DNA of 64,000 nucleotides, taken from Bdellovibrionota bacterium (GTDB lineage Bacteria; Bdellovibrionota_C; UBA2361; JBIKUX01). Location: contig JBIKUX010000001.1 of NCBI GenBank assembly GCA_044347345.1, positions 32,001 to 96,000 of the forward strand. Direction: 5' to 3'. Position 1 is the stretch's first letter, and the number at the start of each line of letters is the position of its first letter. Below the pieces are notes generated by a model. The model was given only the letters and a program-made list of their open reading frames with translations, was not told the origin of the DNA and did not search any database. Made by a program: the position numbers and the translations under genes. Of this stretch, positions 26,243 to 40,682 are shown one piece after another.

Positions 26243-28417
26243 TTGATAATGATACCAAACAATCTCTCTGACCAAGCTATCCAAAACACCCAAGAACCTG
26301 AAATTACCTATGATTCAGATATACCAGAAGATGCTAAAAATTTGATTAAACAAGAAGAGCACACGCTAAAACAAACTCTCCAAACTCTTCTTTCGTTACT
26401 TGACCGACATCTTCACCGACGCAACCTAGAAGAATCTAGAGCGCGAGAGCTTACAGCCTCACTAGTAACTGCGAGGCGAGACGAAGATAAACAGCTAATC
26501 GCATCCGATGAAGCTGTCTCACATGCTCTTAAAGAGAAAGCTCGGGATGATATTAAAACTACCAACGCTCTACTCAACAGACCATATTTTGCTCGAGTTA
26601 TATTGGAAGAAGAGGAGGAAAACGGTACTACAAAGACTATTGAATTTAAACTAGGTATCCATTCAAATACCGATGCTCGTATTATTGATTGGCGCCGTGG
26701 TCCACTCGCACGTTTGTATTATAATTACCGTGAAGGCGAGGAATACGGCGAATTTATTCAAGGCCGAGAGAGAACTGGAAAAATAAAATTAAGAAATCAA
26801 CTTGATATACAAAACGGCGATTTAAAGGGGATTATTTGTCGCTATGGCCGATTAACAAAAACCGGCCATAGCTGGAAACAAGCGATCACTCAGAGAATAT
26901 CAAGGCGATACGATCAATTACCTGATATTCTATCTTTAATTTCACCAGAGCAATTTGATTCAATTACAACTGAAGCTAATACAGCAGTGCTTGTTCAAGG
27001 AATTGCTGGTTCAGGTAAAACGAGTGTAGCACTTCATCGCCTTTCATGGCTTCTTCATGAGGGAAACTCACCACTTCAACCAGCTGATTGCGCAATAGTG
27101 GTGGTAAGTAGAGCGTTAAAGGAATACATTAAAAATTCCCTTCATCACCTTCAAATCTCTGGTGTTCACACTTTTACTCTCATTGAGTGGTGTAATGAGT
27201 GCCTACCGTGTCGACCACTGAGAAGTGACTCTCCATTGGTTTACGCGAGAGACAAGCTTCCAAGAACTTTAGCTAGATTAAAAGCTTCAGACGCTTTACT
27301 CGCCTCAATAGAATTAATTTTTAAGACCAAAAATCAATCTATACTAACTAATGGATTTAGTAGCGACTCGTTAGATGCGTTTGAACAATACATAAATATC
27401 TGCAAGTTAGTTCTTGAATGTCCAGGCGAACTTACTGCCAATGACTCTACTAAACTGATAGATGAAGAAAGCATAAATCATCTTAAAGAATATCTCTCTC
27501 ATCAGCTTACTCAGGGAGATATCGACAGATATGACTTAGCTCTCATGGTTAGAATACAACAGCTCACCGCTGGTAGCATTCGAATTCCTCCGCAAGATAG
27601 TGCCCTAGGCTCCTCTTCCGCTCATGTTTCAGAAAACAAGTCTCGATTCGGTAAATATGGTCACTTAATTGCAGATGAAGTGCAAGATTTGAGTGCAGTT
27701 GAACTTGCAGCACTCGCCGGAGCTGTACCATCAGTAAGAGATTTAACTCTTGTAGGAGATACAGCCCAAGCTATCACCACTTCTCATTCATTTCCTGGAT
27801 GGACAAATCTTATGTCCCGATGGAATTTAACCGATGAAAGTTCTAGATTTATACTTCTAACAATCTCACATCGCTCAACAGCGCCAATCATGAGATTAGC
27901 TCAGTATGTTTCAACTGGTTCCATACATCTAGCGCAACAAATCAAAGGTAGAGAAGGACGTGTTCCTATTTTTTTCCAATCTCGTGAGGAATCTCGGGCT
28001 ATACACGCAGCTATTGCGTGGCTTAAAAAAGCCCTGGAGCGTTATCCCACCGCTATTACCGCTGTTTTATGTCGTAACATCAGCGAAGCCAAACAAACCT
28101 TCTCTCTTTTAAGACCAACGTTTGGCGATACAGTCAGATTAGGTAACGATGATGACTGTTCTCTGGAGGAGGGTCTTTTAGTCGCACCAGTTGGAGATGT
28201 AAAAGGCCTTGAGTTTACCAATGTCCTTGTATGGAATCCAACTCAGTCCAGTTACTCTACAACAGATGAAGAGAGAAATCTGTTGTACGTTGCGCTCACT
28301 CGTGCAGAAGAAAATCTTGCATTAGTTTCGTGGCGTCGCCCCGCAAAACATCTTCCCCAGTTGGATAGCCCTTTTGTGCGTGGCATCAGTCTTGATGCAG
28401 ATGAGGAGGAAGTATAA
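26243..28417 (+). CDS. HelD-like SF1 helicase/ATPase (RNA polymerase recycling factor family)
   Basis: N-terminal PYFAR ... IIDWRRGPLARLYY, Walker A VQGIAGSGKTSVALHR, DEVQD, VGDTAQ, KGLEF, LYVALTRA. Start is uncertain (TTG 26243 or ATG 26249). Confidence 0.8.
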   Translation: MIMIPNNLSDQAIQNTQEPEITYDSDIPEDAKNLIKQEEHTLKQTLQTLLSLLDRHLHRRNLEESRARELTASLVTARRDEDKQLIASDEAVSHALKEKARDDIKTTNALLNRPYFARVILEEEEENGTTKTIEFKLGIHSNTDARIIDWRRGPLARLYYNYREGEEYGEFIQGRERTGKIKLRNQLDIQNGDLKGIICRYGRLTKTGHSWKQAITQRISRRYDQLPDILSLISPEQFDSITTEANTAVLVQGIAGSGKTSVALHRLSWLLHEGNSPLQPADCAIVVVSRALKEYIKNSLHHLQISGVHTFTLIEWCNECLPCRPLRSDSPLVYARDKLPRTLARLKASDALLASIELIFKTKNQSILTNGFSSDSLDAFEQYINICKLVLECPGELTANDSTKLIDEESINHLKEYLSHQLTQGDIDRYDLALMVRIQQLTAGSIRIPPQDSALGSSSAHVSENKSRFGKYGHLIADEVQDLSAVELAALAGAVPSVRDLTLVGDTAQAITTSHSFPGWTNLMSRWNLTDESSRFILLTISHRSTAPIMRLAQYVSTGSIHLAQQIKGREGRVPIFFQSREESRAIHAAIAWLKKALERYPTAITAVLCRNISEAKQTFSLLRPTFGDTVRLGNDDDCSLEEGLLVAPVGDVKGLEFTNVLVWNPTQSSYSTTDEERNLLYVALTRAEENLALVSWRRPAKHLPQLDSPFVRGISLDADEEEV

Positions 28418-28469: not shown

Positions 28470-28790
28470 ATGTTTAAACATAAACGCAAACCAAAAAATC
28501 TTGATATTGATGTCTCTGTATTAAGTACACTTTTAAGTGTTCCAGAGCTTAATCAAAACTGTGATCAAGCTAATAGCCTCCAGTATAACAATCATGAGTC
28601 TCACAATCACAGCGAAACAGCTAAACGGCAAAGTGTTAAATTTTTATCAGTAGAAGAACTAAAGATTAAATTTCCAAAACTCAATCTTCCTAAAGATACC
28701 GAAGGTGGTTGGATTACAGAAAGTGGTGATAGAATTTTTTTGGTAGTTGGAGGTATACACCACCTTACTACTCCGGTCTTAACCAATTAA
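28470..28790 (+). CDS. Small hypothetical protein, possibly Trm112-like
   Basis: LLSVP near the N-terminus and GGWITESGDRIFLVVGGIHHL at the C-terminus resemble the Trm112-like pattern (L.CP ... YPI.DGIP.L). Weak. Confidence 0.4.
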   Translation: MFKHKRKPKNLDIDVSVLSTLLSVPELNQNCDQANSLQYNNHESHNHSETAKRQSVKFLSVEELKIKFPKLNLPKDTEGGWITESGDRIFLVVGGIHHLTTPVLTN

Positions 28791-28816: not shown

Positions 28817-31684
28817 ATGAAAGAAGATAAAAACCTAGAGGGACTACTTAGCAGATGTGACCAAGAACCTATTCATATACCAGGCTCAATTCAACCTCAC
28901 GGCATTCTATTAGGTATAAATAGTGCAGACTATCAAATATGCGTGGTAAGCGAAAATATCTCTATCTGGTTAAATCTCTCTCCAAAAAAGATCATCGGTT
29001 CATCGCTAGACACAATTTTTGAAACCTGTGTAAAAGATGATATTGATGCCCTAAAATCTACGTTATCAGAAAAGCCAGATACTCTTTTACCGCTAAAGAT
29101 TCATTTTAAACCGTCAGTATTAAAAATTTTATCGAATGATAAATCAGCTATTGCTGACTCAAATTCAATAAATATCGGATTTGTTCATCAAGTAGGATCT
29201 TTATTTTTGCTAGAGATTGAACAAGTAGCACAACCTTCGTTGAAAGAGAAATTAGACCCTCACATTGAGTTAAGAAGTTCAATTTCTCAAATGTATCAAT
29301 CTAATTCTATATTAGAAGCTTGCGATATAGCAGCAAATGAAATTCGTCGTATTACGGGATATGACCGAGTAATGATCTATAGATTTGATGAGGATTGGAA
29401 TGGCCAAGTAATTGCAGAGGCAAGAGAATCAACTCAAGATTCATTACTTCATCTCCACTATCCTGCGAGTGATATACCTACTCAAGCTCGTACACTCTAC
29501 ATTAAAAATAAACTGAGAATCATAAGAAATAGAGACTACATACCCAGTAAATTACATTATCACCAAAATTTTAATGATCCCGTTGCTTTTCAAAGTAATC
29601 AATACTTATCAACAAGAGAATTAGATTTATCTCTAGCATCCCTAAGAAGTGCTTCTCCGATACACTTACAATACTTAAAGAATATGGGGGTAACTGCTAC
29701 CTTAACCATGTCCTTAGTAGATGGAGACTCACTTTGGGGACTGATAGCTTGCCATCATTCAAGCCCGAAACATATTTCATACGAACAACGAATATTTTGC
29801 GAATCAATTTCTCTGCTGTTCTCTTGGCTACTAAACGCAAAGGCTCGTCAAACTGATGAAGAACAACGGTTATATTCTCGAGCTATTCTTAATACATTGA
29901 AAGATTCGGTAACTAAAGTCTGTATTTCAGCAAATACGGACTCTCTCTTTAGCGCACTAAATAATTTTGACTCAGTAAATAAAAAAGAACCAGATATACT
30001 AAGATTTGTCGATGCATCTGGGGCGATAATATCCTTACATGATAAACTATATTTTTACGGAAAGTGCCCATCTTTCAATGATTCTAAAAAACTCATTGGT
30101 TGGCTTACAACGCTAAATCTCAATAAACCATTCGTTACACATTGCTTAAAAAATTATTATTCTGAAGCTCAATCTATTACCCATTGCGCTAGTGGTCTAA
30201 TGGTTTTACCCCTCCTTCAAAATGCTCGCGATTTCATAGTTTGGCTGAGGCCCGAATTAATTGAAACTGTTAAATGGGCTGGAAAGAACAGCACTACGAC
30301 AAACACAAACAATCTGAAGGAATTAGAATTATCTCCTCGCAGATCGTTTGCTACTTGGATAGAGCAAAAATTGGGAGAATCCGCACACTGGCTTTATTGG
30401 CAAACTGACCACGCTGAACGCCTAGTGTTATTACTAACTAAAATTATAATCGATAATATGGCGCGCTTAGAAGATTTACGCGCTGTTAACAAAGCAAAAG
30501 ATGAGTTTATTGCTGTTATATCTCATGAACTGCGAACTCCAATCCATGCTATCCTTGGATGGATTGAACTTATTCGAGACAAAAAATTCGATAGCTTGGA
30601 CTTACCCTTTATCCTTGAATGTTTGAAACAGAGCGTATTGTCTCAAGCTAAAATTATAGATGACCTTCTCGATATAGGCAGAGTTTCGCGAGGATCCATG
30701 CATATCGAGCCCTTACGAACTTCTTTAACAGAGGTCGTTAATCGGGCAATTAACTCATTTCAGTCAATAATCACTGATAGGCAAATTAAAATTATTGTAT
30801 CTAGTAACAACAATCTTCCCTCTGTTTTTGTAGATCCTGAGAGAATACAACAGGTATTTGCGAATATATTGAATAATGCAATAAAATTTTCCCCTCAGGG
30901 TGGACAAATAAATATCTCACTTCAGGGTAACAACAAGTCTATACTTTGCCTAATTAGAGATGAAGGATGTGGCATTGAATCTAATTTATTAGAATTTATA
31001 TCAAGTGGTTCCAAATTAGAGAATCTAGCCTTTAATGAGTCTATCCCAAATGCTAAACAAAGCGGTATAGAGAAAAATAATTTAGGGAAAAAAGGTCTCG
31101 GGCTAGGATTATCAATATCGAAGCACATAATTGAACTTCACAATGGTCAAATTAGTATCGCCAACAATACAGAATCTAAGGGAACAACAGTTAATATAGA
31201 AATTCCCATAAATCATCAAATAAATAACTTCTTGCCGTCAGATTATCAAAAGGAGTTTGATTCAAATAATATCCAAGTGTCGCAGAAAATTTGCGATGTA
31301 AATAATAATAAAAAACATATCCTTTTGTTGGAGAGGGATTCCGAATATGTACAATTTTTTTCTAATCATCTAAACGATAAAACAATCGAGATTACTCATA
31401 CAAACCGCGGAGATACTGGTCTTGAGCTCGCATTATCGCGCTTTTACGACTTAATAATATCGGATATCACTTTACCATATATGAATGGAGTTGAATTTAT
31501 TACTCGACTCAATACGCACTATCATCTGCGTGGCCTTAAAATTCCGAGCAGTATCGCAGTATCATCCTCTTATCGCAAAGAAGATATAAGTCAAGCACTT
31601 GCCGCTGGATTTACAGTGCATCTTACAAAACCTATCACAGTTTCAGCTTTAATGGAGGCAGTAACCACGCTTCTTTTTGCGTAA
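28817..31684 (+). CDS. Hybrid bacteriophytochrome histidine kinase (PAS-GAF-PHY-HisKA-HATPase-REC)
   Basis: CDQEPIHIPGSIQPHG (N-terminal bilin Cys), GYDRVMIYRF, YPASDIP.QAR, SPIHLQYLKNMGV, LWGLIACHH, PHY tongue SPRRSF, SHELRTP, NILNNAIKFS, DEGCGI, GLGLGLSI, REC ISDITLP..NG and TKP. Confidence 0.95.
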   Translation: MKEDKNLEGLLSRCDQEPIHIPGSIQPHGILLGINSADYQICVVSENISIWLNLSPKKIIGSSLDTIFETCVKDDIDALKSTLSEKPDTLLPLKIHFKPSVLKILSNDKSAIADSNSINIGFVHQVGSLFLLEIEQVAQPSLKEKLDPHIELRSSISQMYQSNSILEACDIAANEIRRITGYDRVMIYRFDEDWNGQVIAEARESTQDSLLHLHYPASDIPTQARTLYIKNKLRIIRNRDYIPSKLHYHQNFNDPVAFQSNQYLSTRELDLSLASLRSASPIHLQYLKNMGVTATLTMSLVDGDSLWGLIACHHSSPKHISYEQRIFCESISLLFSWLLNAKARQTDEEQRLYSRAILNTLKDSVTKVCISANTDSLFSALNNFDSVNKKEPDILRFVDASGAIISLHDKLYFYGKCPSFNDSKKLIGWLTTLNLNKPFVTHCLKNYYSEAQSITHCASGLMVLPLLQNARDFIVWLRPELIETVKWAGKNSTTTNTNNLKELELSPRRSFATWIEQKLGESAHWLYWQTDHAERLVLLLTKIIIDNMARLEDLRAVNKAKDEFIAVISHELRTPIHAILGWIELIRDKKFDSLDLPFILECLKQSVLSQAKIIDDLLDIGRVSRGSMHIEPLRTSLTEVVNRAINSFQSIITDRQIKIIVSSNNNLPSVFVDPERIQQVFANILNNAIKFSPQGGQINISLQGNNKSILCLIRDEGCGIESNLLEFISSGSKLENLAFNESIPNAKQSGIEKNNLGKKGLGLGLSISKHIIELHNGQISIANNTESKGTTVNIEIPINHQINNFLPSDYQKEFDSNNIQVSQKICDVNNNKKHILLLERDSEYVQFFSNHLNDKTIEITHTNRGDTGLELALSRFYDLIISDITLPYMNGVEFITRLNTHYHLRGLKIPSSIAVSSSYRKEDISQALAAGFTVHLTKPITVSALMEAVTTLLFA

Positions 31685-31760
31685 TTTAATCAAAAAACTT
31701 CATCTTAGATTTAAGAAATATTCTTAAAAAACCGACTTTACACCGGAAGATAAAACGATC

Positions 31761-33839
31761 GTGCATATAATGATGGATGAGGAAGATTTTCGAGAATTTC
31801 TCATTGAAAGCTACGAATCTGTAGAGTTTATAAGTAAAAAACTCTCCGAACTTGAAAAAACAAATTACGTTTGTGACGTTATTGATGAAATTTATCGTCG
31901 TGTTCATAAGATTCATGGTATTAGTGGCTTTCTGGAATTTAAAACTCTCGAAAATATTTCAAAACAAGCTCAATTTTTACTGGTAGAATTAAGAAAGGAT
32001 CCAAGTAAGACCTCAAAAAACGAAAAACAAGTTCTGGTTACTTTTAACGATACCGTAAAATTAATCCTCACAAACATTCAAACACAAAAAAATGAGGGAC
32101 GATTAAACATAGAGCAACTTAATAAGGATTTTACCAGCACTATTGCTGAATTAAGAGCGAAAAATAGTGCTAGTTCTCAAGAAGCACAAAAACAAGATAA
32201 CGTAAGTGATCCGGAAGATTGGGATAAATTATCCCATAATATCTCCAGTAACACCGACAAGAATCAAATATTAATAGATGTCACAATTCTAGATAATTTG
32301 CTCGACCTCGTTAACGAACGCTTAGTGACACTACAAATACAATCGGACAATAGACACGAAAAGTATCCGGCAAACTGCCCAGATTTAAAAAACGACTTTG
32401 AATTTTTGACCACAATAATAAAACTTATAAAAAACGTAAGATTACAGTCACTAAAAAGTATGCGAGAGGAGCTTTTTCCTTTTGTTAACGACATGTTAGC
32501 TAAGTACAATAGAAAAGTACGAATTATAGTTCAAGATGACGATATCGAAATTGATAAACTAGTCGTAACGACGATTAAAGAGGCAGTATATAAAATCATT
32601 TTTTACTTTTTAAAATTACCACAACCTAAGATAAACACCCAAACTAACGACACTCAGGGATTGAGCCTCGACACTAAAGAAAATAAGCAATCCGACATTA
32701 TCGTTAAATTATCCTACGATATGGGCAGAATTAGCCTCGAAATACTTGAAGGTTCTGCTAAAGAAGAATCATGTTTAAATCCAGTTCAAATAATTACCAC
32801 TAATGAAGTGAGAACTACTCTAGAAACTCTCAACTTAAAAATAAAAAGCCTAGGTGGAAAGCTTGATCAGTTTGGAGTGTCCGGAAAATTAACGTCAGTC
32901 CGTGTAACACTACCTAGTGCTATAATGGCCGTACCGATGCTCATGGTGGAAAGTCATGGAGAACGCTTTCTGCTTCCAAGAGGAAATATTGTAAAATTGT
33001 TAAAGATCGATAATCTGCAAATAAGAGAGCAGATCGAAGAAATAGATGGAATCTATTTTTATAAAAACTATCATACACCACTTCCAGTTATACCCTTATC
33101 ACAAGCTCTTAATATCGAAACAAACCCAAACTTAAACCTCAAAGATAATATAAATCTGATAACTGTACGGGTACACTCTGAGGAATTTGGAATTATAGTC
33201 GATAATATTTATCAAATTGAAAGCTCCCTCATAAAACCACTAAATAAGTTACTTGAAAATCATCAATTATTTTCAGCTGTGTCTATTTTATCTGATGGAA
33301 GTATCGCTTTTGTATTAGATTGTTCGAAAATTGGTGATAAATTTTCTTTAATTCGAGACAACCGCATCCCTTCAGTTATTGAATCTTTTGAAACTGTGAC
33401 TACTAAATCATCTAATCACCAAGATCGCTTAATTGTGGTAAAAATCGATCAAACCTTTCAGGTTGCAATCCCAATTAATAAAGTAAATAAACTTGAAAAA
33501 ATCTCCTCTGATAATTTAATCAGACAGAACCAAGAGCTTTTTATCAAACTTAAAAGTCAAGAAGTGATCCCGCTTATTATTTACGGAGCTCATGAACATA
33601 CAAAACAGAATCTTTTTGAGCTAAATGATTTTATATCTACTGTCATAATAACAGATGGCGAGAAAACTTTAGCGCTCCTAATAGAGAGCATCATTGGGAT
33701 AACAGAGCAATCAGGCGATGATATCAATACCAATCTTAGCCTTTTATTTAATGACAAAAGTGAGGGTTTCATAACTAGTCAAATATCAAAAATTGTAAAT
33801 GTTGATGACCTAAAAATACTTGAATCAATGTATCACTAA
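31761..33839 (+). CDS. CheA-like protein: Hpt, dimerisation domain, degenerate HATPase, two CheW domains
   Basis: Hpt EFLIES...IYRRVHKIHGISGFL; dimer IDVTILDNLLDLVNE; VRLQS...EIDK; CheW domains ERFLLP...FGIIVD...IKPL...ILSDGSIAFVLD and VAIPINKVNKLEKI. N-box and G-boxes not recognisable. Start may be ATG 31770. Confidence 0.85.
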   Translation: MHIMMDEEDFREFLIESYESVEFISKKLSELEKTNYVCDVIDEIYRRVHKIHGISGFLEFKTLENISKQAQFLLVELRKDPSKTSKNEKQVLVTFNDTVKLILTNIQTQKNEGRLNIEQLNKDFTSTIAELRAKNSASSQEAQKQDNVSDPEDWDKLSHNISSNTDKNQILIDVTILDNLLDLVNERLVTLQIQSDNRHEKYPANCPDLKNDFEFLTTIIKLIKNVRLQSLKSMREELFPFVNDMLAKYNRKVRIIVQDDDIEIDKLVVTTIKEAVYKIIFYFLKLPQPKINTQTNDTQGLSLDTKENKQSDIIVKLSYDMGRISLEILEGSAKEESCLNPVQIITTNEVRTTLETLNLKIKSLGGKLDQFGVSGKLTSVRVTLPSAIMAVPMLMVESHGERFLLPRGNIVKLLKIDNLQIREQIEEIDGIYFYKNYHTPLPVIPLSQALNIETNPNLNLKDNINLITVRVHSEEFGIIVDNIYQIESSLIKPLNKLLENHQLFSAVSILSDGSIAFVLDCSKIGDKFSLIRDNRIPSVIESFETVTTKSSNHQDRLIVVKIDQTFQVAIPINKVNKLEKISSDNLIRQNQELFIKLKSQEVIPLIIYGAHEHTKQNLFELNDFISTVIITDGEKTLALLIESIIGITEQSGDDINTNLSLLFNDKSEGFITSQISKIVNVDDLKILESMYH

Positions 33840-33855
33840 ATACACCATACTATTT

Positions 33856-34341
33856 ATGAATAACTATTCTGAATTAACTCCAGAAATTAACTATGAATAC
33901 TTGGCTAATTTCCGATTAGGTAACTTACTTTTTGGTATTAATGTAGCATCTGCTTTGGAAGTCTTAGAATACCAAGAGCCTAAACCATTTTTTTACCGGT
34001 CTAAAGAGGAAAAAGAATTTATAATTGGAATCATAAAATATCGGAGTATGATTATTCCTGTTGTTAGCCTTCATGCAACACTAGGTTTGCCAGAAATTGA
34101 TAATTTGAATAAGGCATTTTTCTATGTAGTGAGCACTCCTGAGTGTAAATTTAGTTTACTAGTAAATGAAGTTGGAGATGTCATAAAAGTGGATAGAAAT
34201 CATTTTGAAGATGTACCAGCAACTATTAGTAATCGCATCAAAGCTATTCTTAAAGGTGTTTATAGAATTAAAAACTCTCTTATATTAGTAACAAGCCCAA
34301 AAGATATTTTGTCTGTTTTTAAACAACATCTGCCGAATTAA
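33856..34341 (+). CDS. cheW: Chemotaxis coupling protein CheW
   Basis: FRLGNLLFGINV..EVL, GIIKYRSMIIPVVSL, SLLVNEVGDVIKV..FEDVP, KGVYR. ATG 33856 preferred. Confidence 0.85.
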   Translation: MNNYSELTPEINYEYLANFRLGNLLFGINVASALEVLEYQEPKPFFYRSKEEKEFIIGIIKYRSMIIPVVSLHATLGLPEIDNLNKAFFYVVSTPECKFSLLVNEVGDVIKVDRNHFEDVPATISNRIKAILKGVYRIKNSLILVTSPKDILSVFKQHLPN

Positions 34342-34387
34342 AAATTTATAACAACTAGACTATCAAAGATTTTTATCGTGGTTCCAG

Positions 34388-35251
34388 ATGAGAAACCCAA
34401 AACTTTTTCTTGGTATTCAACCTATTTGCAGCATAGTTTCTGATATACTCAGCTATATACCTCATAAAACTGTAACTGACGTAACCGATGCAGATTATAT
34501 TGTTTTTCCTCAACACATCCCCTCAGGAGCGGTATCAGAAGACATGGCGCTCACACTTGTGTCCTATAAATACTATGCTGAAGATTTTAATAAAACCCTA
34601 ATCATTTTTGTAATGTCTGATTTTACTGATCCGTTTAAAGGCTTTGATAATTCTATTATCTACAGAACATCTCTTTATAGGTCTGAATGCCTTAAGCATG
34701 AGCGCATATTACCATATCTTTGGATAAACAATTGCTTTTATAAAATTAAACCAATAATAAATAATCGTCCTCGAATAAATTTCTGTGGAGCAATTACCTA
34801 TCCCCAACGAATATTTGAATTGGAGGCTATTTTAACATCTTGCGATAAGTGGCTGGATTGTGACTTTACCATCAGAGATAAACCCTGGGGAGAAGGAGTA
34901 AGTAATGCTCATCAGGAATTTTTTAATGGATTGAGTAATGCTCAATTTATCTGTTGTCCACGCGGTGTAGGAAACTTTTCAATTCGATTTTATGAGACAC
35001 TTTGTGCCGGCAGAATTCCAGTTTTTGTTAACACAGATATGATTCTACCCTTTGAAGGCGAAATAAATTGGAATGACGTAGCTGTGATTGCACCAAACAT
35101 AGATGAACTACCTAACTGCTTAATTAATTTTATCAAGCGAAAAAATCTGGTTGAATCTCAAATATTGTGTCGAGATATTTATGATAAGTACCTCTCACCC
35201 GCTAAGTTTGGTGAATACTTACATCGTTGTATGTCTTCGGGAAAATTTTAA
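34388..35251 (+). CDS. Exostosin-family (GT47-like) glycosyltransferase domain protein
   Basis: INFCGA and FICCPRGVGNFSIRFYETLCAGRIPVFV..D.ILPF..INW, the typical exostosin C-terminal motif. Confidence 0.8.
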   Translation: MRNPKLFLGIQPICSIVSDILSYIPHKTVTDVTDADYIVFPQHIPSGAVSEDMALTLVSYKYYAEDFNKTLIIFVMSDFTDPFKGFDNSIIYRTSLYRSECLKHERILPYLWINNCFYKIKPIINNRPRINFCGAITYPQRIFELEAILTSCDKWLDCDFTIRDKPWGEGVSNAHQEFFNGLSNAQFICCPRGVGNFSIRFYETLCAGRIPVFVNTDMILPFEGEINWNDVAVIAPNIDELPNCLINFIKRKNLVESQILCRDIYDKYLSPAKFGEYLHRCMSSGKF

Positions 35252-35369
35252 AGCTGTTATGTAAATCTTTGACTAGTCTTTTATTTGCACCAAAGGATCA
35301 GATTTTTTATCCTCCCCATCATTTGAAGAATTGTCGTAGATTTTTACAACTTAAATATAAGCTGTAAAT

Positions 35370-36965
35370 TTAAAGATTTTCGAGCGAAGTTTCCCGTAAT
35401 TGTTTAATTAGTTGTGCATACCGATTCAGATCTGCTGTAGCAGTCTTTGTCTCTTTTGCTTGCTCAGAAGTATTAATTACCACTTGAGAGGATTCTTTGA
35501 CCTTATGATTAATCTCCTGTAGAGACATTTTTACTGTGTTAAATGAATCGACTATTTTTCCTGAGACAACTCTTTGATCCCCAAGTAAGTTATCAATCAA
35601 AGCACAAAAACTATTTACTTTATCTAGGCCACTACTTATTTGCCGTAAATAGACACTTACTTTGTCGATTTTTTCTTGAACTGCTTGCCTAGTTTTCGAA
35701 ATTTCATTGACTTCTTGAGCGGCACCACAAACGATATTTTTTACCTCATTAACTACTACACTAAAGCCTCGACCCAAATCTCCAGCTCGCGCTGCCTCGA
35801 TACTACCATTAATAGCTAATAAATTCGTTTGTTCAATAATATTACCTAGGACTTTTAATGGATTGTCCATTCCATTCTGAGCGCTAGACACAGTGTCAAC
35901 CAGCGTAAAGCCCTCACCAGCTACTTTTATAACCTCCAAAATCACCTGCACAGCTTGAGCCATCTTCCGAGTGATATCGCGAATGATTGACTCTGAAAAC
36001 TCATTCGCTTTTTCACCCTCAATTATATCTTCCTCTAATTTATCAGGTCTCGGCAATACAGATTTAAGTTGATGTACCGATTGTTCTGCATTAGAAATTA
36101 AAGCGCCAGTTAAGACATCAACATCTTCTAAAGACTTGCTAAATTGAGTAGCAACTTCAACCAGTTCTTGACTGATTTTTTCTTGATGAGCTTTATAGGA
36201 GGTTATATCAGTTAAAATCTTAATTATCGAAACTACTCTTCCTTCTTGGTCGCAAACAGCAGAATACAGAGCGCTCACCCATACTTCACGGCCACCTTTT
36301 CCTAACCCTAAATATTCTACTGCTATATCCCCCTCACCTCTGTTTAACTTTTCCCATAAACGCTTGTAATCAGCAGATTGAGCATACTTAAGCTCACAAA
36401 ACAAACTATCGTGACGTCCTCTTACCTCATCAACTGTATAACCAAACATTGAGAGAAACTTGCCATTCGCAGCTCGTACTGTTCCGTCAGGCTCAAACTC
36501 TACAATTGGTTGTACTTGATTTAATGCTTCTAATTGAGACTTAACACGAGATTCATTAACGACACGCTCAGTAGCATCGTGAGCAAATTCTACAATCTTT
36601 GACACTACACCCGTAGCATCTCGTACAGGAATATAAATAGATGAAATCCAAACGAGACTTCCGTTTCGTCGGAATCTTTTAATAATTCCCGAGCAGGAAT
36701 AACCCAAAGCAAGTCTCTGCCAAAAGTCAGTATACTCTGAGCTCTTCGCATAAGACGATTCATGAAATTGCGCGTGATGCGTATCGATTAATTCTTCCCG
36801 ACGGTATCCCATTAATTTTTGAAAAGCTGGACTCAGATCAATAATACGACCGGTAGGGGTAAATTCTATGTAAACTACTTCCTCAGATCGAAGAAGATTG
36901 GCAGCTAGGTCGCCCTTTGGTAACTCGGATGTACCTAACTGCACTATCTGAAGACCATCACTCAT
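35370..36965 (-). CDS. Soluble methyl-accepting chemotaxis protein with two PAS domains (BdlA-like)
   Basis: Two PAS repeats (EF.P.G..GY..E...H..F..Y...W..L..G..VW..Y..V.D..G.V..I...D.T), hairpin [31 protein letters not shown], no TM helix. Confidence 0.9.
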
Positions 36966-37088
36966 ACGGTGGCTCCCATCTTAAAAGCAAAGATTTATAT
37001 TTTCCCTCTATTAACTTTCAACCCAGCAGTTAGAAAAACGAGTAGAACAAAACCAAAGAGAGGGGCTCTCGCAATGTAATGATGACGA

Positions 37089-38462
37089 TTAAAGATACGA
37101 GGATGCATAGGAAGGAGTATCTTCAACTAACGGAAATGCCGCTGAAGGTGGTACTAAGGCAAGCTCTCCGTGTTGAGTTAGGTCAAGCCCCTCAATCTCT
37201 TCAGCGGTTGTGATTCTTAGAGGGCATATACAATTTACTAACTTATAAATTAAATAAGATGCCAAGAATACGGCAGGTAGAGTTATCAGCAACCCTAAAA
37301 GATGTGTTAAAAAGAGGGTTGTCTCTCCTGTTATCAGTCCGCCATTTTTTGCAAATACAGCCGTTAGTAACATCCCGACTATTCCGCCTAACCCATGACA
37401 AGAAAAAACATCGAGAGTATCATCAAATCCAAAACGCTCTTTGAAATGCACTGCTACATTACTAATAGTGGCCGCTATCAACCCAATAATGACGCTTGCT
37501 ACCACGGAGACATGTCCCGCGGCTGGAGTAATTGCAACTAGCCCTACAACGGCTCCTATGCAGGCACCAACAGCACTAACTTTTTTTCCGCGCATTCCCT
37601 CTAGACACATCCATACAACCAATGCAACAGAAGAGGCCATATGGGTATTTAAGAAAGCAAGAGCCCCTTCACCATTAGCCTTTAAAGAGGAGCCTGCATT
37701 AAATCCGAACCAGCCAAACCACAAAAGACCAGTTCCAAGAAGTACAAATGGAACATTTGACGGCACCAAAGTTTCCCGGCGTTTATAAGCATTGCGCGGC
37801 CCTAATACGAGAGCACCAGCTAATGCGGCCATTCCGGCAGAGATATGTACTACTGTTCCTCCAGCGTAATCAAGGATACCCCATTTCATAAAAATCCCAT
37901 CTGGGTGCCAAGTGAGATGAGCTAGCGGTGAGTAAACTATAATGGTCCATAAAGCTATAAATAGAAGATAACTTGTGAATTTAATCCGTTCAGCAAAAGC
38001 TCCAGTAATTAAAGCCGGCGTAATTATGGCAAATTTCAACTGAAATAACGCAAAGAGAACAAAAGGAAGAGTTTTACCAAGCTCAGAGTGCGGAGATGCA
38101 CCCACATGATGAAACATTAAATAAGTAAAAGGATTTCCAAAAAGCCCACCAATTGAGTCGCCAAACGCAAGACTAAATCCTACGACGAGCCAAACAATAC
38201 TTACTACTCCGACAGCAGCAAAGCTTTGAAACAACGTGGATACAACATTTTTTGCGTTAACCATCCCCGCATAAAAAAAACCCAAACCCGGTGTCATAAG
38301 TAGCACTAATCCAGATGCTCCCAACATCCAAGCCGTATCAGCTCCATTAATTTCACCATTAACTAATAAATTTGCTGTTTCATTTGCACGAAAGCCATCA
38401 AGCCCGATACAGCAGATAGCTAAAAGTAAAAATCCCCATCCGAACTTCTGTTGCACAAACAC
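37089..38462 (-). CDS. amtB: Ammonium transporter
   Basis: DTAW, LMTPGLGFFYAG, FQLKFAIITPAL, DYAGGTVVH, WFGWFGFNAGS, DDTLDVFSCHG (twin His present). Confidence 0.95.
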   Translation of the reverse strand: MFVQQKFGWGFLLLAICCIGLDGFRANETANLLVNGEINGADTAWMLGASGLVLLMTPGLGFFYAGMVNAKNVVSTLFQSFAAVGVVSIVWLVVGFSLAFGDSIGGLFGNPFTYLMFHHVGASPHSELGKTLPFVLFALFQLKFAIITPALITGAFAERIKFTSYLLFIALWTIIVYSPLAHLTWHPDGIFMKWGILDYAGGTVVHISAGMAALAGALVLGPRNAYKRRETLVPSNVPFVLLGTGLLWFGWFGFNAGSSLKANGEGALAFLNTHMASSVALVVWMCLEGMRGKKVSAVGACIGAVVGLVAITPAAGHVSVVASVIIGLIAATISNVAVHFKERFGFDDTLDVFSCHGLGGIVGMLLTAVFAKNGGLITGETTLFLTHLLGLLITLPAVFLASYLIYKLVNCICPLRITTAEEIEGLDLTQHGELALVPPSAAFPLVEDTPSYASSYL

Positions 38463-39341: not shown

Positions 39342-40682
39342 TTACTGCGAGGCTACCTCTGTCCTATAGAAAGCATTAACTGGAACCGGATAAATAGAAC
39401 CGCTTTCGCTAGCTCTGAATAGAGAGTGATCAACAATTACTAAAAGCTGGCTCCCTAATGATGAAGTGCGTCCAATTTGCACAATCTCACCGGTCATGGC
39501 CAAGCTAATAGGGTCTAAATGGGCTTCAGTCAGTCTCCAATGCATTATGTCACCATCACGTCCAACGGTGAAAACAGAACCATCTTTATCATCAACTGCT
39601 AAATCATATATTAAACTTTTATGAGCTTGAACTTGTGCAATTTTTTTCATGCCTCTTGTTCGCCATACTTCAACTAAGCCGGAAGTTCTCGCTATCCAGA
39701 GAAATTCACCCTGTGGATCTAGAGATGCCTCAACCACACCCCCTTCTGTAGAAGAAGCAGGAGACGGCATGCCGGCAGAAAACTTAGTTGGGGTATCAGT
39801 GAAATACCGACCAGAAAAAATATTGCGGTCATAAATTCCGCCATGTAGGTCAGCATCGTATGTTTGCCATAGATTGAAAGCTCCGCCTAAATCACCCGAA
39901 AAAAAAGCCTTGGCGAATGGATGAAAAATCACAGAACTAACTACACTATTATGGCTTACGTACCTCTCCAAAGTTCGCTTCTTTGCACTGAGCGAGTGTA
40001 CCGCTCGCTCGCGTTTAAAAAGCCACCGATAAATCTTACCATCAGAGGCACCCACTAAAAGAGACTCTTCGTCTGGGCTGAATCCAAGTGCAGTTACCCT
40101 CGCTGATACTGGAGGTAAACGCTGACTAACTTCAAAGTTAACATCACCCTTTCTCGTAAAAAGGTTTACCTCTAACGTAGAAGATACCGCGAGAAATGTA
40201 CCATTAACTGAAAGAGCACAACGGCTGATACTAGAATTTAACTTAGTTATCAAACGAACATCGATATCGTCGTTAAAATTTTCATCCAGATTCCAAATAC
40301 GAATTGAGCCATCTTTATGACACGATAAGATGGTGTTTTTTTTGAGGTGCTTAACATCTGGGGCTTTGTCTTTAAACATCTTCCCACCAGTGATGATGTT
40401 TGTGCTATTTGTGCCTATCCTATCTCTTGGGATAGCCCACAAACTCACTATCTGGCTAAACTCATGGTTGATATGGTTCTTGATAAAGCTCGTATCACGC
40501 TTTATCACTGTATTATCTAAAATCACTGTGTTATCTAAAGAACCTCTATCAAAAATTCTATTTTTTAAGTCATCTGAATCTGCCAAGGAATCTGTGGTGG
40601 CCCAAAAAACCATCTCTGCCAAAAAAGAAGTGGCACAGCACAAAAGCAGGCGAAAAATGGTGTTTTTTACAGATATCCTCAC
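39342..40682 (-). CDS. Exported WD40-repeat beta-propeller protein
   Basis: Signal-peptide-like N-terminus; repeats such as DGSIRIWN, LGFSPD..GASDGKIYRW, HNSVVSSVIFHP, AHKSLIYDLAV..TVGRDGDIMHW. Confidence 0.8.
   Translation of the reverse strand: MRISVKNTIFRLLLCCATSFLAEMVFWATTDSLADSDDLKNRIFDRGSLDNTVILDNTVIKRDTSFIKNHINHEFSQIVSLWAIPRDRIGTNSTNIITGGKMFKDKAPDVKHLKKNTILSCHKDGSIRIWNLDENFNDDIDVRLITKLNSSISRCALSVNGTFLAVSSTLEVNLFTRKGDVNFEVSQRLPPVSARVTALGFSPDEESLLVGASDGKIYRWLFKRERAVHSLSAKKRTLERYVSHNSVVSSVIFHPFAKAFFSGDLGGAFNLWQTYDADLHGGIYDRNIFSGRYFTDTPTKFSAGMPSPASSTEGGVVEASLDPQGEFLWIARTSGLVEVWRTRGMKKIAQVQAHKSLIYDLAVDDKDGSVFTVGRDGDIMHWRLTEAHLDPISLAMTGEIVQIGRTSSLGSQLLVIVDHSLFRASESGSIYPVPVNAFYRTEVASQ
40504..40539. 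repeat. 18-bp tandem duplication in the WD40 gene (LDNTVI x2)
   Basis: atcactgtattatctaaa followed by atcactgtgttatctaaa. Confidence 0.85.

Follow-up and report, generated by a model that had tools for sequence, protein, structure and literature searches.

In a survey of 13,673 CheA proteins, the ATPase domain is the most conserved and the defining part of the family, and a dead one is described there in CheA3 of Cereibacter (Rhodobacter) sphaeroides only (PMC10782961). CheA3 combines a working, His-bearing P1 domain and a CheW domain with a degenerate HATPase domain from which the Mg-ATP residues are missing (PMC10782961); it has a partner kinase, CheA4, encoded in its operon, and a cognate CheY6. 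The F5 class of CheA (Azospirillum, Rhodospirillum, Caulobacter, and Azorhizobium) has the domain order Hpt-P3-P4-CheW-CheW without P2, two CheW domains in 99% of its members, and a cheA-cheW gene pair (PMC10782961). ChpT and Spo0B are kinase homologs that shuttle phosphoryl groups between receivers, the former being a pseudo-histidine kinase (PMC9981736), and yeast Ypd1 is an Hpt protein fed by a receiver, with the residues H64, K67, G68, and Q86 (PMC6341664).

Here, we analyzed a 64,000-nucleotide window from the genome of a Bdellovibrionota bacterium (GCA_044347345.1, contig JBIKUX010000001.1, positions 32,001 to 96,000; all positions below are counted within the window) that carries a CheA homolog, hereafter the focal CheA (Table 1). 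It shares with the F5 class the domain order, the lack of P2, the two CheW domains, and the pairing of cheA with cheW, and we call it F5-like on the basis of this architecture; it differs in having neither an ATP site nor the Lys/His/Glu residues of P1, and the operon genes cheY, cheB, cheR, and cheX were not found. It would work most like CheA3, but it is compact, has two CheW domains, comes from another CheA group, and has no cognate CheY6 that we could find; a partner of the CheA3/CheA4 type was found neither by BLASTP nor by a six-frame profile search of an assembly in which a small gap remains. A CheA with a dead P4 is already known in CheA3; what is distinctive here is the missing partner kinase. 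No partnerless kinase-dead CheA was found in the literature searched, outside of which lie subscription journals and supplements, and more degenerate CheAs could be listed in the tables of PMC10782961. The role that we propose resembles that of ChpT and Spo0B; their His, however, sits on the DHp helix of a class I kinase, whereas that of the focal CheA sits on a P1 tied to CheW domains, and their relay function is proven, whereas that of the focal CheA is a proposal. With Ypd1, the focal CheA shares the His, the Gly at H+4, and the Gln at H+22 (the last matched by spacing), whereas the H+3 Lys that Ypd1 keeps is a His here and a Lys stands at H+19 (PMC6341664).

Table 1. Features of the focal locus, with positions in the window
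Feature	Position	Strand	Description
Hybrid bacteriophytochrome	28817..31684	+	PAS-GAF-PHY-HisKA-HATPase-REC; H, N, G1, and G2 boxes intact; no Hpt
Focal cheA, F5-like, predicted kinase-dead	31761..33839	+	P1-linker-P3-P4 (dead)-P5a-P5b; 692 aa; start may be 3-4 codons downstream
P1/Hpt domain	31779..32165	+	residues 7-135; His49 at 31905-31907; Gly53 kept
P3 dimerization helices	32265..32444	+	residues 169-228; eroded
P4, predicted GHKL fold without nucleotide site	32445..32915	+	residues 229-385; lid and G2 box deleted
N-box position of P4	32583-32615	+	reads AVYKIIFYFLK
G1 candidates of P4	32715-32729 or 32745-32759	+	two alignment registers
First CheW-like domain, P5a	32916..33338	+	residues 386-526
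Second CheW-like domain, P5b	33417..33815	+	residues 553-685
cheW	33820..34341	+	only stand-alone CheW found in the genome
Exostosin/GT47-like glycosyltransferase gene	34388..35251	+	between cheW and receptor gene
PAS-PAS chemoreceptor	35370..36965	-	only MCP found; no membrane-domain family match

Domain architecture and the ATP site

The focal cheA starts with GTG and, as the earlier note on this DNA had said, runs for 692 codons without an internal stop; about 53 stops would be expected for random codons of equal composition, and the remaining five frames across the region contain 32-82. Its start varies by 3-4 codons between sources, falling at residue 5 in the protein collection (688 aa, P0001) and at residue 4 in the ESM Atlas. 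A compensated frameshift in the ATP-site stretch can be set aside, since both other plus-strand frames there hold stops and no kinase boxes. In ten sequencing runs, seven of them marked as possible DNA sources, a fraction of 0.94 or more of the words sampled from region 28817-37000 is present, so assembly error is unlikely; the runs containing the genome are lake and freshwater metagenomes.

The product is a CheA homolog over its full length. CheA chains of the PDB are its top sequence matches, a profile built from the 149 best representatives matches it at E 1.9e-89 while skipping residues 281-358, and the order P1-P3-P4-P5 is recovered by profile, by PDB sequence matches, and by structure matches. 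A tree built from 59 proteins places it together with the intact two-CheW CheAs of its order (support 0.965, with the caveat of long branches). Two CheW domains and no P2 are common to it and its intact relatives, so that these traits, which had been noted earlier from the sequence, are confirmed as traits and not as degeneration, both being ancestral to this type of CheA (PMC10782961).

What has degenerated is the ATP site. In a 78-row alignment, the helix that should carry the N-box reads AVYKIIFYFLK, without a single Asn and without RNxxDHG, just as first noticed. The F-box, the ATP lid, and the SGRGxG (G2) box are missing from the alignments, in agreement with the earlier claim for the lid and the SGRGVG box. 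Gaps occupy 27 of the 108 core columns around the ATP site in the 78-row alignment; the net shortening is about 21-27 residues, and six of the 46 conserved ATP-site columns are retained. The G1 box is lost in either of two registers: in alignments by BLAST, MAFFT, and HHalign, DDGxG falls on YDMGR (residues 319-323), whereas a profile of the preceding hairpin and a single-sequence model (strands 312-320 and 323-331) favor LEGSA (residues 329-333). DxGxG is absent from both; the earlier note was thus right about the loss of the box, and its assignment to LEGSA is one of two ambiguous choices. Pfam identifies both CheW regions and, below threshold, an Hpt, and reports neither HATPase_c nor H-kinase_dim at E<=1; a survey of CheA that relies on the HATPase domain would overlook proteins of this kind, just as Pfam overlooks the domain here. 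From its sequence, we conclude that the focal CheA is predicted to be unable to bind Mg-ATP or to autophosphorylate.

The N, G1, and G2 motifs are intact in 139 of the 149 best CheA relatives, and the N-box is present in all 16 P4-bearing ORFs of CheA length examined at the relatives' loci. The ten representatives that fail a strict N+G1+G2 test, a few of them with G2 clearly lost, are all far nearer the consensus than the focal CheA; they indicate that partial decay recurs in this CheA group. In four other two-CheW CheAs (P0079, P0080, P0109, and P0075), the N-box is altered and the G2/G1 boxes are lost or deleted, and these are possible independent steps toward pseudokinases.

The P4 fold nevertheless appears to persist in models. 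An alignment-guided model contains all domains (mean pLDDT 77.8) but is biased by intact homologs and was therefore not used for placing pocket residues. Two checks with less bias point the same way. The model from the ESM Atlas itself resembles P3-P4 of CheA with TM 0.54-0.62. When residues 225-391 are folded without an alignment, at a low pLDDT of 51.7, ATPase domains of the histidine-kinase type fill the 50 matches listed, the best with Z 9.1 and an rmsd of 3.8 over 108 residues; Spo0B (1ixm) and 4qpj, which we take to be ChpT, are among the fold matches. The dead P4 is thus modeled as retaining the GHKL fold.

The P1 domain

The alignment-guided model of P1 superposes on the P1 of CheA3 (3kyi) with Z 19.6 and an rmsd of 1.7 over 127 residues. 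The motif around the phosphorylatable position reads HKIHG, and the earlier description of a kept His and a replaced Lys proved accurate (His49 and His52). Among 26 conserved P1 positions, 18 are identical, five are changed conservatively, and three non-conservatively, namely Lys to His52 at H+3, His to Lys68 at H+19, and Glu to Gln71 at H+22. In 215 P1 motifs of the family, these positions hold Lys in 214, His in 212, and Glu in 215; the focal CheA has exchanged Lys and His reciprocally, and of the four residues expected of an active CheA, it retains only the His. The three positions align with T. maritima CheA, where they are presumably Lys48, His64, and Glu67. The Lys/His/Glu trio around the P1 His is an activating network. 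Glu67 touches the phospho-His and is thought to aid autophosphorylation (PMC3904827); our literature search found no mutagenesis paper on the P1 Lys/His/Glu residues.

The residues that matter for exchange with receivers fare better. The Gly at H+4, required for His-Asp transfer (PMC6341664), is kept on a predicted Hpt bundle, and helices A and B, which lie toward the receiver in the CheA3-CheY6 pair (PMC2817712), retain 11 of 14 conserved positions; the exposed residues E16, E19, E32, and R46 of these helices are kept. Back-transfer from a phosphorylated receiver to the P1 of CheA has been measured in R. sphaeroides (PMC2924250). Conserved columns are retained more often in P1 (18/26) than in the other non-ATP regions (48/125; P=0.005) or in P3 (8/26; P=0.012), whereas the difference from the first CheW domain is not significant (P=0.056); these Fisher tests treat columns as independent and share a single underlying alignment. 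The pattern of residues therefore suggests that the requirements for ATP-dependent phosphorylation have been lost and that much of what receiver docking requires has been retained. Two cautions apply. The H+3 Lys, which in Ypd1 is the active-site K67 (PMC6341664), is replaced by His52, with a Lys at H+19 instead, so that His49 may be chemically dead, and the change from Glu to Gln at H+22 could just as well have become permissible once phosphorylation of any kind was lost. Prediction of a complex between P1 and the receiver of the neighboring phytochrome gave scores of 0.26 and 0.28 against a mark of 0.32, which counts neither way.

Rate and pattern of sequence change

Six intact CheAs of the order are 47-61% identical among themselves, whereas the focal CheA shares 22-24% identity with them, and its terminal branch in the tree of 59 proteins measures 2.99 against a median of 0.61. 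FliM of the same genome stays 64-74% identical to that of 12 relatives, and the acceleration of cheA is therefore gene-specific. The excess comes to about 1,060 substitutions; were it neutral, the gene's own nonsense-to-missense ratio would predict about 67 stops, and none is observed. Erosion is also uneven. In the 78-row alignment, conserved columns are retained in 6/20 cases in the N-terminal part of P4, 5/10 in its C-terminal part, 23/51 in P5a, and 6/18 in P5b, and hydrophobic columns in 27/28 cases in P1, 14/17 in P3, 41/47 in P5a, and 30/30 in P5b. The uneven erosion, the fold retained in models, and the missing stops lend support to the view, first put forward in the earlier note, of an open frame that is under selection and would encode a pseudokinase.

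Variants seen in one sequencing run (X12) add little, as they come from one contig each at a depth below 5 and are too few. At this low depth, where differences may be errors, P5a shows six non-synonymous and three synonymous codons, including a conserved Lys, and the phytochrome shows eight non-synonymous and two synonymous changes. Since the phytochrome, with its intact boxes, has an even higher non-synonymous share (8/10), the variants do not single out cheA. In the X12 contig, 13 differences fall within 31548-31689, and the part of P1 up to 32140 is free of them. Short clusters of differences in this run (31548-31689, 33114-33278, and 40287-40600) could be divergent recombined tracts or errors.

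No ortholog of the focal CheA was found. A protein search returned 59 matches among 7,999 scored candidates, consisting of the protein itself and intact CheAs at no more than 28% identity; there is none among the best 150 of 9,537 representatives, with at most 28% identity to the 149 best, none in 41 genomes, and none confirmed among 109 pattern matches of a metagenome scan. The function proposed below is therefore inferred from one gene, and the retained residues are not demonstrable as conserved across species.

The remaining chemosensory genes

The genome (95.8% complete, 68 contigs) is the sole member of its family among the genomes compared, and it is that of a flagellated bacterium, with FliG, FliM, MotA, FlhA, and nine Flagellin_N matches. 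Within this 95.8%-complete assembly, BLASTP found no second CheA, a six-frame profile search found no CheA-type P4 elsewhere, and neither CheR nor CheB, nor any MCP or CheW beyond one of each, was detected; there is no cheY at the che locus, and the operon CheX was not found either. Of a complete chemosensory system, an MCP and a CheW are thus present, and an active CheA, CheR, CheB, and a cheY at the locus were not found. In six annotated relatives, the operon reads cheA-cheW-(mcp)-cheY-cheB-cheR-(cheX), preceded in four by a stand-alone hpt, the annotation covering 61 of 192 ORFs from 11 loci. Here, the focal cheA, cheW, and the PAS-PAS receptor gene are left, the last of which is inverted and separated from cheW by a probably unrelated gene.

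All three genes are accelerated. CheW is 27-37% identical to that of six relatives, which are 45-60% identical among themselves. The flanking arms of chemoreceptors carry methylation sites. The receptor tip retains 23 of the 34 columns that do not vary among five relatives, and the flanking helical arms retain 13 of 59 (Fisher P=2e-5); the loss in the arms is in step with the missing CheR and CheB. Receptor tip, P5, and CheW form the interfaces of arrays (PMC13098124), and the gene set retained, together with the conserved tip, indirectly supports the array scaffold proposed in the earlier note; for the Hpt carrier that the note gave as the alternative, the kept His and H+4 Gly speak in favor, and the three replaced residues around the His and the failure to find a kinase partner speak against. 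Contigs from RNA libraries of one study, which show neither strand nor level, cover 31905-32138 within P1 as well as most of the receptor gene. A search for sigma-28-like sites upstream of cheA, mcp, and the flagellin genes was negative, and the single sigma-54-like match near cheA occurs at the background rate (0.2 per 260 bp).

A CheW-family match is missing in 11 of 37 FliM-bearing relatives (G006, G007, G008, G013, G025, G026, G028, G031, G035, G037, and G040), eight of which are at least 90% complete, and these are flagellated lineages that apparently lack chemotaxis; loss of chemotaxis is therefore tolerated. The N-terminal LSQ/LTQ-x-EI motif of FliM is present in 10 of 10 CheW-less relatives checked, and a CheY-like match of 45-48% in 4 of 10. 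We had considered the FliM N-terminus and a CheY-like gene of the focal genome as evidence of an output, and rejected both: they also occur without CheW in relatives and therefore do not point to the focal CheA. Several relatives carry two or more CheAs.

The neighboring phytochrome and other Hpt proteins

The phytochrome gene ends 76 bp upstream of cheA, and the acidic pair of its receiver reads ERD. Receivers of such hybrid kinases are relay intermediates (PMC9981736), and the phytochrome is the most obvious candidate phosphodonor to the focal CheA. Four of 40 relatives have phytochrome matches, none of them on a contig with a cheA match. The phytochrome gene has no cover in two RNA runs, a contig-based result that proves nothing. 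The genome also encodes a stand-alone Hpt protein (C5:248-625, L041), which is CheA-P1-like with the His, an Arg at H+3, and a Glu at H+22, and an Hpt-bearing hybrid protein; both could serve the phytochrome instead, and the stand-alone Hpt is an alternative relay partner. Because this Hpt lies at a contig end, we considered whether it leads into an unassembled cheA, and rejected the idea: C5 joins C51, and no cheA was found there.

Possible functions

The focal CheA, CheW, and the receptor suggest a sensing complex that has been reused as a scaffold or phosphate relay, and not simple decay. An F5-like operon, which in relatives comprises hpt-cheA-cheW-mcp-cheY-cheB-cheR-cheX, would have been reduced to its three array-forming parts. 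The focal CheA would stay folded and, by means of its P5 domains, would probably assemble with CheW at the tip of the PAS-PAS receptor; the His site of P1 would receive its phosphoryl group from a receiver domain that is itself phosphorylated, not from ATP, and would pass it to another receiver or drain it. The dead P4 might act as a structural spacer or as a dock for P1, and the state of the receptor might, speculatively, gate access to His49. The reading that we prefer, a receptor-tethered His relay or phosphate sink fed by a receiver, is offered tentatively, at somewhat less than an even chance. A more specific version, with the array as a receptor-gated phosphorelay in which the intact phytochrome phosphorylates its own receiver, that receiver feeds His49, and the PAS-PAS receptor gates passing to a CheY-like regulator or draining, is quite improbable; if true, it would integrate light and a PAS-sensed cue in a flagellated bacterium without an active CheA.

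The same three proteins could also form a phosphorylation-free complex that localizes or sequesters partners, with P1 as a binding module and His49 incidental. Replacement of all three residues around the P1 His, the failure to find the operon CheY, CheB, CheR, and CheX, and the retention of both P5 cores and of the receptor tip would all fit such a scaffold, yet it leaves unexplained why His49, Gly53, and the four exposed helix residues are retained over P3 (P=0.012), and it has no evident output; we regard it as somewhat unlikely. Slow decay, in which chemotaxis is being lost and the trio no longer has a signaling role but persists because misfolded or truncated products are weakly selected against, would account for the acceleration of all three genes and for the inverted, split-off receptor gene, and other members of the order have lost chemotaxis (the 11 of 37 without a CheW match). 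A pN/pS near 0.7 among the nine variant codons also points that way, but the phytochrome variants of the same run are even more non-synonymous. Against decay stand the roughly 67 expected stops, none of which is present, the three separate genes that remain open, and the sparing of interfaces and cores by erosion, and we consider this explanation unlikely.

Two further alternatives would keep ATP-dependent phosphorylation. P1 could be phosphorylated in trans by a P3-P4-P5 partner encoded outside the assembled contigs. CheA3/CheA4 is a direct precedent (PMC10782961), and the 95.8% completeness, the 68 contigs, and the two or more CheAs of several relatives leave room for such a partner; with no CheA-type P4 in the six-frame search, no further CheW, MCP, CheR, or CheB, and the P1 Glu that assists ATP-dependent phosphorylation lost, however, such a split kinase is very improbable. 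The idea of a highly diverged but active kinase using non-canonical residues is barely credible: the GHKL fold is intact in models, and in the LEGSA register a Glu-Gly pair lies close to the position of the G1 Asp, but there is no N-box Asn and there are no G2 glycines, the lid is deleted, and the activating Glu of P1 is lost.

That the only CheA is dead while the trio appears to be under selection suggests a kinase-independent role of chemosensory complexes, and a receiver-fed relay or sink would suggest that the P1 of CheA can be converted into such a site. The genome may also represent an intermediate stage of chemotaxis loss, within an order in which 11 of 37 FliM-bearing relatives lack a CheW match. 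These considerations concern a single gene from a single uncultured species.

Flanking genes

GC content is 31-37% over window positions 29000-36000, which span the phytochrome, cheA, cheW, and GT47 genes, compared with 40% for the genome. Upstream of the phytochrome lie a UvrD/HelD-like helicase gene (26243-28417), for which the HelD label is our assumption, and a 106-aa ORF without a Pfam match (28470-28790). The GT47-like gene has no counterpart in the annotated che operons of six relatives and is probably unrelated to the che system. The receptor gene adjoins an ammonium transporter gene (37089-38462), which at 58% is the best match here to the amt that follows cheR in one relative (G012), an adjacency hinting at an inherited locus. 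Elsewhere in the focal genome (G000), two FHIPEP genes besides flhA (C45:1126-3174 and C7:38307-40058) are possible non-flagellar type III export gates, and two hybrid-kinase-like proteins with REC and Hpt-like parts (C7:5198-7753 and C37:29687-31693), whose H-box looks degenerate by eye, are possibly further pseudokinases.
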